In this document: positions 27,092 through 33,342 of the stretch, piece after piece
How the letters are laid out: each line of letters starts with the position of its first letter
Position numbering within the stretch: the stretch's first letter is position 1
Origin: Candidatus Aenigmatarchaeota archaeon
Lineage (GTDB): Archaea > Aenigmatarchaeota > Aenigmatarchaeia > CG10238-14 > SCSR01
DNA: 64,000 nucleotides
Reading direction: 5' to 3'
Assembly (NCBI GenBank): GCA_018920185.1
Contig: JAHLMT010000001.1
Location: 78,702 to 142,701, forward strand
Program-made: the position numbers and the translations under genes
Notes under the pieces: model-generated
What the model saw: the letters and a program-made list of their open reading frames with translations, nothing else
Told to the model about the DNA's origin: nothing
The model's database searches: none

Positions 27092-27538
27092 ATGCCGTTA
27101 AACATACAAGAAATAATTCCTATAGGTTTGTGTATAGCAACCCAAGACCTGATAGATGCAAAAAGATTTCAGCAAAATTTTGCTGATAACTTGATTTTAA
27201 GAAATCGTGATGTGATGCTAGAAAAAAAGATAACACCCATAAAAAGAGAACTCAATTCTTCTGTACATCAAAAGAAATATCTAGAAGGACACAAAACAGC
27301 TATTATAAATAACATTGATAAAATAATTGCTCTAGTCTCAGCTAGATATACAGAACTCGATTTGAATTTGGTCGACTCTATAGTTTATAATGGCAAATTG
27401 ATAATAGAAAAAGTTTTAAATGCGGAATCATTTGAAAAAATTGCCGAGTTAAATGCAATATTCAAATCCAAAATAACTTTACCTGTTTATGACCTGTTTA
27501 TAAAACATTTGAAGAAATCACGTATTTCGATGATCTAA
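27092..27538 (+). CDS. hypothetical protein
   Basis: A 148 aa ORF with a good start context and no recognisable motif. Confidence 0.4.
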   Translation: MPLNIQEIIPIGLCIATQDLIDAKRFQQNFADNLILRNRDVMLEKKITPIKRELNSSVHQKKYLEGHKTAIINNIDKIIALVSARYTELDLNLVDSIVYNGKLIIEKVLNAESFEKIAELNAIFKSKITLPVYDLFIKHLKKSRISMI

Positions 27539-27697
27539 ATGTCTGATATCGAAAATGAAATAGAGAGATTGAAGATGAAAAAAATTGAGATAACTCATAA
27601 GTTAAACATGACAGAGTTTGTTGACGAGAAAGAAGAATATATGAAAGATCTTGAAAAAATCCAAAAACAGATTGATATCTTAGAAAGAATGAGATAA
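27539..27697 (+). CDS. small coiled-coil protein (52 aa), hypothetical
   Basis: An uncalled ORF, MSDIENEIERLKMKKIEITHKLNMTEFVDEKEEYMKDLEKIQKQIDILERMR. Its ATG directly abuts the upstream stop (TAAATG). Confidence 0.3.
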   Translation: MSDIENEIERLKMKKIEITHKLNMTEFVDEKEEYMKDLEKIQKQIDILERMR

Positions 27698-27819: not shown

Positions 27820-30156
27820 TCAACTCTCCGATATTAAAATTTTAGTTTTTTTACGTTTAAATTTGGAGACAAAGTTCTTAACTAAATCAAATAATCCTCT
27901 TTTTTCTTTGCTTACATACGTATATCCCACTTCGGGTTTGTATCCTTCTTTCACAGGCCAGAACAAATAAACTAAAATTCCGATAATAAATAGTATTAAC
28001 ACACCTGTAACTATCAACCATACCTTCGATGGTATTTCTACTTCCGTTTCTGTTGTTTCAAGCGCTTTCAACCGATTCTCAACTTCATTTATCAAAGCTT
28101 TTATAGTTTCGAATGTTTGATATGCTTGAAAATAGTTGTCGACATTTATATGATCTTCAGCTTGTTTTATCACAGCTTTAAGTTCTGATAATTTTTGCTC
28201 GACAGATTTCGTATCATTTATTTTACTCTTTAACTCACCCAATTTATTCTCTAACTTGCTAGTATCCAGCTTATACAAAGCCAATGTATTATTTATTTTT
28301 TCTTTCGTTTCATTTGACGGTAGAACTCTCAAAGTAAAATCTTGTGATATAGTAACATTACCGCTGCTTACATTAAATTTAGCGGAATAATCTTTTACAT
28401 CAACATTTCCTATATTGAAAGTTATCGTGAAAGTTCCTGTAGCACCACCGGAGATGTTCTTCAATTGATTAACCGAATACCAGTTTTTGTCTATCCCAAT
28501 TAATTCTAAGGTGATATCTTGCACAGTAGTTCCAGTATTCTTAACCTTTACCTCGGAACTTGCAGTAGAGTTCTGAACTATTTCTATTAACGAAGGTACC
28601 TGTACAAAACTTATGCCTGAAGTAGGTCCAGGCTTTATAATTAATGTATTTTTAGCAGTATCTGAAGTGTAATTCTGATTAGTAGTGCTGTTACATACAT
28701 ACTCGTATATAGAACCAGCTGCAAATGTCTGGATATCAGGATTCGATACTAATGTACCATTTCTGTACAATTTCGCTGTGAATTCAGGCAAGCTTACAGC
28801 ACAACTAACATTTGTTTGTATTGGTGAATCGAGAATCCATTGAGGTGTTATGCTTAAAGTAACTGGTACTATAGCACGGTTAATTGTGAAAGAATTCAAA
28901 CCAGTTAAGTTAAACATGTGATTCGAATAGTTGCCGTATATTTTCCATGTGTATGTTCCGGCTGGAAAAGTTATGTTATAGTAATAATTAGTTGTAGAGG
29001 TGTTTGACATAGTATAAATAGTTGTTGTGCCCGACCAGTCGCCTTGGATTAAAACATTATATAGCTTTGGATCAGTGGCAAATGTTATACTAATTGTGCC
29101 TACTGTAGTTGAATATGTAGATGGTACAGATGTCGATGTTGAATATCTGGGTACTGTAGCTACAAAATAAGTCACAGAATTGCTTGAAAAGTTTGCATTA
29201 CCTGTTACACTAATGGTATAATTATGTAATCCGATACTTGTTAAAGTATCTGAACGCTGTGTAGGATTGGGGTCAGAAGAAAAAATAATTACACCATCTC
29301 TAGCTATTGAAATACTACAATCCGCTTGTGTGCACGAAGCGTTAGCGGTTATATTAACAACAGTACCGTTAATTGTAGTAATATTAGAGTTCAAAGAACC
29401 ATTTAAAAAAACATTTAAGGTGTTTACGCCTTTTCTTACAATGTAAGTTAGTTGATCTGTTGAGTTGAAAGTATTGTTAGTGTCGTTGGCATAAACTCTC
29501 CACATGTATGTTCCAGCTGGTAAATCGGTAAATTTCATATAGTAAACATTGCCCGAACTACTCATGCTATCGTTATGTAGTGAAGCAGCACCAGTAAAAT
29601 TATGTTCCAACAAAACATTTGATATAGCACTATTATCAGTCCAAGTTATGTTAAACCAATACTCCTGTCTAGGTATGTAAGATGAATTTGTACTGGGAGA
29701 TGTGACAATGTTAGAATATTTGGGCGCTGTCACATCGAAGATGGCTAAACTCACATTACTCGAGTTAAACACACCATTAGCATCAAGTGTAGATATATTG
29801 AAGTTATGGTTTCCGATAACAGGAGGTGTATCAACTCTGAAAGCAAAATATTCAGTAGCACCAGCACCAACAATACCTATTGAAGTAGTATTAACCCAAG
29901 ATGCTGGATCTGTATACGCAAAACGACTTGTTGTAGTAGATGGGCTACCTGCAAAAACAAAACCCGGAGGCAAAGTTATATTTACATGAGTTATATTTAT
30001 TGCACCTGTGTTTGTAACACTGAAGTTAACTAATTGACTGGATAGACCAGCTTCCAAGCTGGTGGGAATTGCACTTGCTGTGAATGAGACAGCTAGGGTA
30101 TTGTTAATAATGACGAACAACGTAATCGCAAAAATGCAAATAAACCATTTATTCAT
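27820..30156 (-). CDS. large secreted Asn/Ser/Thr-rich surface protein with C-terminal coiled coil and TM anchor (candidate S-layer glycoprotein)
   Basis: The signal peptide is MNKWFICIFAITLFVIINNTLAVSFTASA. The protein has very many N-x-S/T sequons (roughly 35-40 by eye), a C-terminal heptad region, then the TM segment VWLIVTGVLILFIIGILVYLFWP and a basic tail. Confidence 0.7.
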   Translation of the reverse strand: MNKWFICIFAITLFVIINNTLAVSFTASAIPTSLEAGLSSQLVNFSVTNTGAINITHVNITLPPGFVFAGSPSTTTSRFAYTDPASWVNTTSIGIVGAGATEYFAFRVDTPPVIGNHNFNISTLDANGVFNSSNVSLAIFDVTAPKYSNIVTSPSTNSSYIPRQEYWFNITWTDNSAISNVLLEHNFTGAASLHNDSMSSSGNVYYMKFTDLPAGTYMWRVYANDTNNTFNSTDQLTYIVRKGVNTLNVFLNGSLNSNITTINGTVVNITANASCTQADCSISIARDGVIIFSSDPNPTQRSDTLTSIGLHNYTISVTGNANFSSNSVTYFVATVPRYSTSTSVPSTYSTTVGTISITFATDPKLYNVLIQGDWSGTTTIYTMSNTSTTNYYYNITFPAGTYTWKIYGNYSNHMFNLTGLNSFTINRAIVPVTLSITPQWILDSPIQTNVSCAVSLPEFTAKLYRNGTLVSNPDIQTFAAGSIYEYVCNSTTNQNYTSDTAKNTLIIKPGPTSGISFVQVPSLIEIVQNSTASSEVKVKNTGTTVQDITLELIGIDKNWYSVNQLKNISGGATGTFTITFNIGNVDVKDYSAKFNVSSGNVTISQDFTLRVLPSNETKEKINNTLALYKLDTSKLENKLGELKSKINDTKSVEQKLSELKAVIKQAEDHINVDNYFQAYQTFETIKALINEVENRLKALETTETEVEIPSKVWLIVTGVLILFIIGILVYLFWPVKEGYKPEVGYTYVSKEKRGLFDLVKNFVSKFKRKKTKILISES

Positions 30157-30286
30157 TAACCTCTCCTATAAATTTTTATAAGCTTCCTATAAGATATTGC
30201 TTTTAGCTTCGTATTCGATGAAGAAAGATGGGCGGCATGATTTAAAAATGAATAGTTTGCCGAGTTCTGAGAAGAAGAGACTTGGA

Positions 30287-30757
30287 TTATCTTTTCTCAT
30301 AAATATCTGAAGTTTGAGCCGAGTTAATTAAAATTCTTTTGAAATCTCCTTTGAAATTTAGTTCAAAAACATAAACATCACCAGATTTCAGCGAGTGTTT
30401 ATTGTTAAGTATATCCACATAATGTTCGTCAACATATGCTGTAAAATTAGAAACCTCTAGTTGTCCGGTATTTGCTACAGTAATTAATAAATTCCCGTTA
30501 GAACTAGTAGATACACCAATTATATCAATGCTATACGCAAAATCCTTTATTAAAGCAATAGCTTTGCCAGTTGTTGGAATAAATCTACCAATAAAGGGTA
30601 TATCTCCCAATTTCGGAAACGACCCCACTAACAAATAGCTTGCCAAAAATACTATCAAAGCAAGTAGCGCGCCAAGTGCAATGTTTCCTATTATTCGAAA
30701 AATTACATAGACAGCAATAATTAAGAGTGCAACACCGAAGAAAAATTCTAGAGCCAT
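30287..30757 (-). CDS. membrane-anchored protein with C-terminal beta-sandwich-like domain, hypothetical
   Basis: Two N-terminal TM helices, and a C-terminal LLITVANTGQLEVSNFTAYV pattern reminiscent of CARDB/pilin-like beta domains. It lies upstream of the S-layer candidate on the same strand. Confidence 0.45.
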   Translation of the reverse strand: MALEFFFGVALLIIAVYVIFRIIGNIALGALLALIVFLASYLLVGSFPKLGDIPFIGRFIPTTGKAIALIKDFAYSIDIIGVSTSSNGNLLITVANTGQLEVSNFTAYVDEHYVDILNNKHSLKSGDVYVFELNFKGDFKRILINSAQTSDIYEKR

Positions 30758-30793
30758 AAAGTTATTTTATCTTTAAAATTTAAATGTGGTTTA

Positions 30794-31420
30794 ATGAGTA
30801 GGATTGATGCATTAGAAATTATCAAACAATCGTTCTGGATATCATTTAGACATCCTATTATTTTTACACTCGTCTTACCACTTGTAGTATCGATGATTAC
30901 GGTTTTAATATCAATTTTTGTTTTGTTTTTTAGCCTATATCCAACAAATCTGTTTTTGATTTTTACTTCTTTAGTTCTGCTGTTATTTAGTTTTTGGTTA
31001 GGAATGCTTAGTGCAGGAAGTATAATTTTATTTGTGGAAAAAATTTACAAACATCGAAAAGTTAGATTTTGGGATGTGCTTAACAAAAGTTTTGAAAATA
31101 GCTTGCGGTTGATAATCGCATATTCGCTAGAACAACTTTTCCTTATGTTAGGATTTCTATTTTTTGTAATCCCTGGAATATTTCTGACAGTTAAACTGTC
31201 TTTAGTTGTCCCAGGTTGCATTCTGGAAAAGAAAGGATTTGGAATAAAAAGAAGTTGGAATGCAACAAAAAACAATTTTTGGAAGATATTTTTAATCCTT
31301 GTTATATGGAATGTGTTATTCATGGTTTTTGGTTTTATTCCTTACTTGTCTATTCTAACAATCTTTCTAATACCCGTGTATTTAACAACACTTACTCTGC
31401 TCTACATCCGACTAAGATAG
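30794..31420 (+). CDS. polytopic membrane protein, hypothetical
   Basis: A 208 aa ORF with multiple hydrophobic helices. Confidence 0.45.
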   Translation: MSRIDALEIIKQSFWISFRHPIIFTLVLPLVVSMITVLISIFVLFFSLYPTNLFLIFTSLVLLLFSFWLGMLSAGSIILFVEKIYKHRKVRFWDVLNKSFENSLRLIIAYSLEQLFLMLGFLFFVIPGIFLTVKLSLVVPGCILEKKGFGIKRSWNATKNNFWKIFLILVIWNVLFMVFGFIPYLSILTIFLIPVYLTTLTLLYIRLR

Positions 31421-31424
31421 TTAG

Positions 31425-31501
31425 TGCCCTCGATGGGATTCGAACCCACGACCTTCTCCTTAGGACGGAGCTGCTCTGATTCCAGGCTGAGCTACGAGGG
31501 C
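31425..31501 (-). tRNA. tRNA-Arg (anticodon CCU)
   Basis: The minus strand reads GCCCTCG-TA-GCTC-AGCCTGGAATCA-GAGC-A-GCTCC-GTCCTAA-GGAGA-AGGTC-GTGGG-TTCGAAT-CCCAT-CGAGGGC-A, a clean cloverleaf with no intron. Confidence 0.85.
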
Positions 31502-31544
31502 ATTAATTTACACTTAATTTTAAAATAATTAACTAAAATTAATC

Positions 31545-32255
31545 TTGAGTATGTCAAATAGTTTAAAGGTTCCTAAACATCTTGGTATCATAGTAGATGG
31601 AAACCGCAGATGGGCGCGAGAAAGAAGAATGCCGCCTTGGAAAGGTCATTGGGAAGGTGTAAAAAATCTCGAGAAAATACTTGAATGTTGCTTGAAATTG
31701 AAAATTCGTGAAGTTTCTATTTATGCTCTTTCGACTGAAAATCTTAAGCGTCCGAAAATAGAATTGGATGAGCTCTTTAAAATTTTCTATCATTATCTCA
31801 ATAAATGGGAAAAAGAAGATAGCTTTCTCAGAAAGTATCAAGTCAAAGTTCGCTTTATCGGAGATTTAGAGAAATTACCTCCCAAGCTTGTAAACGCCAT
31901 GGGTAGACTGATGCAAAAGACAGCAAAATACCAGAAAAGAGTGTTAAATTTGCTCATCGCTTATGGAAGTAAATTTGAAATCACTCAAGCCGTGAAAAAG
32001 CTAGCAGAAACTTTGATTAAATTAGGGAAAATTGAGATAACACCAAAAGATATAGAAAAAAATCTTATGATTACTACCCCACTTGACTTAGTTATACGTA
32101 CAGGAGGGTACAGTAGACTTTCTAATTTCTTGTTATGGCAAGCAAGTTATGCTGAAATCTATGTTACAGATACTTTATGGCCCACATTCACAAAAAGAGA
32201 ATTCATGAAAGCTATCAGATGGTACAGCTCTGTAAAAAGAAACTTTGGTGCGTGA
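31545..32255 (+). CDS. uppS: cis-prenyltransferase (undecaprenyl/dolichyl-diphosphate synthase family)
   Basis: Motifs HLGIIVDGNRRWA, YALSTENLKRP and RTGGYSRLSNFLLWQASYAEIYV. Confidence 0.9.
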   Translation: MSMSNSLKVPKHLGIIVDGNRRWARERRMPPWKGHWEGVKNLEKILECCLKLKIREVSIYALSTENLKRPKIELDELFKIFYHYLNKWEKEDSFLRKYQVKVRFIGDLEKLPPKLVNAMGRLMQKTAKYQKRVLNLLIAYGSKFEITQAVKKLAETLIKLGKIEITPKDIEKNLMITTPLDLVIRTGGYSRLSNFLLWQASYAEIYVTDTLWPTFTKREFMKAIRWYSSVKRNFGA

Positions 32256-33342
32256 TTACTTGGATATCTACGATGTAATAGTTATCGGCGGCAGTTTATC
32301 TGGAAGTAGAGTTGCAGAATTGCTTGCACAAAAAGGAAGAAATGTTTTGTTAATAGAAGAACATGAAAAAATTGGGCTACCATGTAAATGTACAGGATTA
32401 GTCAGCTGGAGAACTCTAGAAATTTTGAAGAACTTACCAAAGAATCTGGTTGTAAATAAGTTAGATAAAGGTAAATTCTATGCTCCAGATGGGACATTTT
32501 TTGTTTTGAAATCAAAAAAGTCAGCTTATGTTTTAAACAGAACAGGCTTAGATAAATTTTTATTCGACCAGGCTGTAAAAGCTGGAACCAAAGTTAAAAC
32601 AGAACATTTTGAAACTTTCAAATATAGCGATGGTTATGTAGAAGTTAAAACAAACAAAGATATCTACCGAACAAAAATTCTTATTGGTGCTGATGGAGCA
32701 AACTCTGTTGTAGCAAAAAATGCAAACTTAACAATGCCTAAAAATATTTTTGTTGGTTTGCAAACAACAGCTCAAGGTAATTTTGAACAATATGTAGAAT
32801 TATGGTTTGGTGAAAATATAGCTCCTAAATTTTTTGCATGGGTTGTTCCTGAAAATGAAGAAGTGGCACGAGTAGGGGTAGCAACACACACAAATCCCAA
32901 ACAATATTATGAGAGATTTCTTGAATCTAGATTGAATCATAATGGATTAATACCAAATGTAGCGGGGATTATTAGATTCGGTATAATGAAAGATACCATT
33001 GCTGATAGGATTATTTTAGTGGGTGATGCAGCATGCCAAGTCAAACCATTTTCTGGCGGAGGAATTACTTATGGGTTAATCGCTTCACAAATTTGTGCCG
33101 ACGCTGTTGAGAAAGCTTTTGAAGAAAACAAATTTGATTATAAATTTTTCAAGCAAAATTATGATTTGAAATGGAAAAAAATTCTAGCACCAGCAATTAA
33201 GAAAGGAATGATGTCAAGAAAAATGTTATATCTTTTATCAGATTCTCAAATGAATGTGCTATTCAAAATGATTAAATTGTTTGGATATAAGATTTTGAAT
33301 AGATTTGATTTTGATTTACTGCCGGATAATGTGTTAAACTAA
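32245..33342 (+). CDS. geranylgeranyl reductase-family FAD-dependent oxidoreductase (polyprenol/lipid reductase)
   Basis: FAD-binding DVIVIGGSLSGSRVAELLAQKGRNVLLIEE and GADGANSVVA. It overlaps the uppS end by 11 nt. Confidence 0.8.
   Translation: MVRDYLDIYDVIVIGGSLSGSRVAELLAQKGRNVLLIEEHEKIGLPCKCTGLVSWRTLEILKNLPKNLVVNKLDKGKFYAPDGTFFVLKSKKSAYVLNRTGLDKFLFDQAVKAGTKVKTEHFETFKYSDGYVEVKTNKDIYRTKILIGADGANSVVAKNANLTMPKNIFVGLQTTAQGNFEQYVELWFGENIAPKFFAWVVPENEEVARVGVATHTNPKQYYERFLESRLNHNGLIPNVAGIIRFGIMKDTIADRIILVGDAACQVKPFSGGGITYGLIASQICADAVEKAFEENKFDYKFFKQNYDLKWKKILAPAIKKGMMSRKMLYLLSDSQMNVLFKMIKLFGYKILNRFDFDLLPDNVLN

Follow-up and report, generated by a model that had tools for sequence, protein, structure and literature searches.

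The window analysed here, a stretch of 64,000 nucleotides from a Candidatus Aenigmatarchaeota archaeon, raises the question of whether a 778-aa protein (BIG) is an S-layer glycoprotein, and whether a neighbouring pair of prenyl-chain genes belongs with its glycosylation. Both had been proposed in a preliminary description of the locus, and all genes named there were recovered in place. The assignment of BIG as a predicted major type-I surface glycoprotein is solid; its S-layer identity and the link to the prenyl genes fared differently.

BIG (27820–30156, minus strand) was delineated as a type-I membrane surface glycoprotein from its ORF, sequon statistics, homologues, and an AlphaFold2 model (mean pLDDT 83.6) with six beta-sandwiches, three helices, and one transmembrane (TM) helix. 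The Sec signal described earlier was borne out by hydropathy (N-terminal hydrophobic segment at residues 3–27) and by a T-L-A|V sequence resembling a signal-peptidase-I site; the predicted signal peptide (aa 1–22; 30091–30156, minus strand) comprises MNK, a hydrophobic core (AlphaFold2 helix 3–17), and TLA|V, and its Ala-Val junction is kept in the A1 consensus. The ectodomain (28318–30090, minus strand) is acidic (74 kDa, pI 5.3, 9 Cys + Met) and modelled as six Ig-like beta-sandwich domains (approximately aa 23–143, 144–243, 244–345, 346–429, 430–510, and 511–613), among which D2 is the most conserved (mean pairwise identity 64%) and D5 carries the invariant Cys452 and Cys488. Between ectodomain and membrane lie three heptad-patterned helices (aa 614–703; 28048–28317, minus strand). 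The C-terminal heptad periodicity previously claimed is real (residues 613–702), though spread over three different registers, and the ~90-residue region (helices 615–643, 650–671, and 675–701) was modelled as three antiparallel helices bundled within one molecule, whereas known S-layer stalks have a long oligomeric coiled coil. The single C-terminal TM helix (aa 712–734; 27955–28023, minus strand), supported by hydropathy, AlphaFold2 helix 713–731, and a conserved motif, closes with YLFWP, in which W733 is nearly invariant and P734 invariant. The basic cytoplasmic tail of 44 aa (aa 735–778; 27823–27954, minus strand; pI 9.9) has a short helix predicted at 756–766 by AlphaFold2 and the consensus KKGYKPE...KNFxSKFKRKKK across homologues. 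The single anchor and basic tail of the preliminary description were thereby confirmed, and the choice it had left between a PGF-CTERM and a TM anchor fell to the latter, with no PGF motif found in BIG.

The BIG family is new. About 30 full-length homologues were found, all of them in Aenigmatarchaeota, at a fixed locus adjoining p148 and aIF5B. One distant locus (L029) encodes a divergent orthologue of 1123 aa at the same position, with 75 sequons versus 21 expected, the same C-terminal module, and the YLFWP motif. The two N-terminal domains (D1–D2) recur in proteins of other DPANN phyla, which have a signal peptide, 5–8 sequons per 100 aa, a C-terminal TM helix, and a basic tail.

Directly upstream of BIG and on the same strand, as described before, is the gene of a 156-aa membrane protein (p156; 30287–30757, minus strand), a conserved partner that occupies this position in 8 of 11 loci from close species as well as in the distant loci L023, L029, L061, L074, and L076. 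Its long N-terminal hydrophobic helix (2–45) is followed by a conserved linker and then by a beta-sandwich of 80 aa, and its sequon N104-F-T106 is nearly invariant. While p156 had no Pfam or NCBIfam match, its model resembles the FlaF/FlaG/archaellin fold, and FlaF binds S-layer protein (PMC4425475). It differs from FlaF/FlaG and from archaellin/pilin globular domains in that its hydrophobic helix is twice as long, the class-III signal motif is missing, and the gene lies outside any archaellum or pilus locus, the type IV pilus-like locus of the window being ~18 kb off. In Aenigmatarchaeota, p156 and the 778-aa gene together make up a conserved envelope cassette of two genes.

The cassette and the prenyl pair (UppS and a geranylgeranyl-reductase-family protein, GGR) are separate, divergent transcription units within a conserved housekeeping block. 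The pair had been placed downstream of BIG, which is correct in window coordinates; with respect to the gene, it sits upstream of the BIG 5′ end and is divergently transcribed. Between them are p156 (minus strand), a 208-aa multi-pass membrane protein (30794–31420, plus strand; YciC/UPF0259/GPDPase_memb-like by sub-cutoff Pfam and NCBIfam matches and precomputed PF06790) that related loci either lack or conserve only weakly, and tRNA-Arg(CCU) (31424–31501, minus strand; ARAGORN). Convergent with BIG are p148 and an abutting 52-aa charged helical ORF (27539–27697), together spanning 27092–27697 (plus strand); p148 adjoins BIG in all 14 of 14 species loci and is its most constant neighbour, yielded no Pfam, NCBIfam, or PDB match, and probably has a role unrelated to BIG. 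The block IleRS-HisRS-PINA-...-aIF5B-Mre11/Rad50 is syntenic as a whole and encloses both gene pairs. Since the units are divergent and at least 4 related loci have neither UppS nor GGR beside BIG, the implied genomic link was not upheld: the proximity reflects housekeeping synteny, not a dedicated cluster, and a glycan-carrier link of the pair to BIG is biochemically reasonable but without support from gene arrangement.

UppS (31545–32255, plus strand; likely start ATG at 31551, giving 234 aa) was recognised as a homomeric-type cis-prenyltransferase by PF01255 (238 bits, 1e-70), TIGR00055 (231 bits, cutoff 110), and an alignment with C. jejuni UPPS 3ugs over the full length (6e-50), which covers the DGNRRWA, RLSNFLLWQ, and C-terminal R-x-FG motifs. 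It thus has in common with bacterial and archaeal homomeric UPPS the full-length homology, the catalytic motifs, and a score above the TIGR00055 equivalog cutoff, whereas its expected product, in an archaeon, would be the dolichol precursor and not the bactoprenol precursor. The short GGR-family flavoenzyme (~355 aa; 32245–33342, plus strand) reached 200 bits against TIGR02032 (cutoff 159) and 31.7 against PF22578 GGR_cat (cutoff 27), and carries the subfamily motifs FFAWV[VI]P, KC[TA]G, and GDAAxxxKPxSGGG. The overlap of the two genes reported earlier exists for GGR starts at 32245 (TTG; 11 nt) or 32248 (GTG; 8 nt) and becomes a 4-nt gap if 32260 (TTG) is used; whichever codon is chosen, the genes are tightly packed. 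Judged by their sequences, both enzymes, the cis-prenyltransferase and the GGR-family flavoenzyme, are genuine, as first assigned, and the pair is conserved: UppS adjoins GGR in 10 of 14 GGR-containing loci, and in three of these ten GGR is only 50–55% identical.

GGR could simply be a membrane-lipid (DGGGPL) reductase without a dolichol role, placed beside UppS by inherited synteny, and we give this a little less than an even chance. Among solved structures, its best match is the DGGGPL reductase of T. acidophilum (3oz2; 1e-27, full length), 4 loci have GGR without UppS at its side, and because GGR (K17830) co-occurs with GGGPS, DGGGPS, and CarS in published Aenigmarchaeota tables, it may mainly serve membrane lipids. 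Against this, the adjacency to UppS persists down to 50% GGR identity, further isoprenoid genes (LYTB/IspH and NUDIX) lie beside the pair in L074, and GGR scores far under the three curated DGGGPL-reductase equivalog cutoffs (99 vs 780, 95 vs 580, 55 vs 700). With the characterised T. acidophilum Ta0516, S. acidocaldarius GGR, and H. volcanii HVO_1799 it has in common the FAD-binding fold, the catalytic Cys, and GDAA...GGG, but it is ~40–100 aa shorter than these enzymes (397–453 aa), has FxWxVP where they have YxWxFP, and forms a conserved pair with UppS. HVO_1799 saturates dolichol phosphate as well as lipids; of the archaeal GGRs, the H. volcanii enzyme alone is linked to the reduction of dolichol phosphate, and it is also needed for saturated diether lipids (PMC10821996). 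As this one enzyme does both jobs, the lipid and dolichol roles are not exclusive, and the test suggested in the preliminary description, i.e., whether GGR groups with lipid-type or polyprenol-type reductases, is ill-posed.

Among known surface glycoproteins, Sulfolobales SlaB (PMC5744192) has in common with BIG a Sec signal, several beta-sandwich domains, a membrane-adjacent heptad/helical region, one TM helix at the C-terminus, and heavy N-glycosylation, predicted in the case of BIG. No sequence similarity between the two was detected, and BIG differs in having six sandwich domains instead of two or three, a modelled three-register antiparallel bundle instead of a trimeric coiled coil of roughly 20 nm, a conserved cytoplasmic tail of greater length, and small p156 as its neighbour instead of a slaA-like partner gene. 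The csg protein of Haloferax volcanii, which von Kuegelgen et al. are said to have described in 2021 as six Ig-like domains, resembles BIG in its string of about six such domains, N-glycosylation (predicted in BIG), and a C-terminal anchor; no sequence relationship was found. Whereas csg is processed by archaeosortase at its PGF-CTERM motif and lipid-anchored (PMC5744192), BIG retains TM helix and tail and adds the helical bundle. SLP_Mh of Micrarchaeum harzensis, an experimentally supported S-layer protein, matches BIG in being a surface glycoprotein from DPANN (~100 kDa) that is acidic, rich in sequons, and poor in sulphur-containing residues, but has S-layer domains (TIGR01564, TIGR01567-type) that BIG lacks, and no clear C-terminal TM anchor, which BIG has.

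That BIG is the lattice-forming S-layer protein of Aenigmatarchaeota, self-assembling into a cell-covering two-dimensional array, is a tentative reading that we place somewhat below even odds. By the generic criteria listed in bioRxiv 10.1101/2021.04.28.441871, it is favoured by secretion, an acidic ectodomain, ~43% hydrophobic residues, few Cys/Met, and heavy predicted glycosylation, as well as by Ig-like domains with a C-terminal anchor, one conserved locus across the phylum, the same layout widespread in DPANN, and a partner resembling S-layer-binding FlaF. It is opposed by the lack of any S-layer Pfam (32 members) or NCBIfam (5 members) match, of any solved S-layer protein in the profile search or among the fold matches listed, and by a codon-usage proxy that is only moderately high (rank 12/54; 0.32 vs 0.42 for thermosome). 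Published tables moreover list S_layer_N or S_layer_C Pfam matches for the majority of Aenigmarchaeota MAGs, and another part of this genome may therefore encode a canonical S-layer candidate. The preliminary description thus stood as to a secreted, anchored, sequon-dense surface protein; because no known S-layer sequence family matches, "S-layer" is kept for BIG as a hypothesis.

Less probable, and on balance unlikely, is that BIG serves an episymbiotic DPANN archaeon as a glycoprotein for host attachment or cell–cell adhesion and not as a structural coat. Aenigmarchaeota were inferred to be host-dependent (PMC8407114), the D2–D3 and D5 domain types repeat up to 19 times in giant (1.2–7.3 kaa), adhesin-typical proteins, the membrane-distal D1–D2 module is conserved across DPANN phyla, and the conservation of the cytoplasmic tail suggests that it couples to a partner inside the cell. 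However, the homologues are uniform in length (~780 aa), occupy a constant position among housekeeping genes, were recovered in no more than one full-length copy from any assembly, and bear a predicted glycan shield that covers all six domains densely and at conserved positions. Binding surfaces tend to stay free and to evolve faster, yet D2 is the most conserved domain. An adhesion role is nevertheless compatible with a coat role.

The density of N-x-S/T sequons, put earlier at roughly 35–40, came to 37, or 4.76 per 100 aa, with 33 in the six-domain ectodomain; all 37 lie in the predicted extracellular part, N-terminal to residue 650, and none in TM helix or tail. Although the genome is AT-rich (~33% GC) and BIG is rich in Asn (9.5%), Thr (12.5%), and Ser (10.5%), a merely compositional origin in an ORF that encodes no glycoprotein is extremely improbable and effectively refuted by shuffles of its own composition (16.5 ± 3.4 expected, at most 28 in 2000 shuffles, an excess of ~6 SD), by the same excess in all 32 homologues (37–52 observed vs 15–22 expected), and by the other 53 window ORFs, each with ≤1.5 per 100 aa. 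Across these 32 members, a sequon is kept in ≥80% at 26 alignment columns and in ≥50% at 40 columns; the conservation of those 26 positions despite only 34–62% identity makes real N-glycosylation of BIG very likely. No AglB/STT3 or glycosyltransferase gene was found within the 64-kb window.

The locus therefore probably holds two separate things, a BIG/p156 coat cassette and a UppS–GGR isoprenoid pair. UppS would form a Z,E-polyprenyl diphosphate, and GGR would saturate isoprene units of the polyprenyl (dolichol) chain, of membrane lipids, or of both, so that the pair would plausibly supply the carrier required by any N-glycosylation. AglB would act as the oligosaccharyltransferase with a dolichyl-phosphate-linked glycan, and there are strong grounds to expect that the BIG ectodomain is modified at some 25–40 positionally conserved sequons. 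BIG may then be one of the main constituents of the glycoprotein coat, be this an S-layer, in which it would form the canopy or the stalk, or a dense coat without crystalline order. Beside BIG, p156, as a membrane-anchored FlaF/archaellin-like beta-sandwich protein, would work in the pseudoperiplasm.

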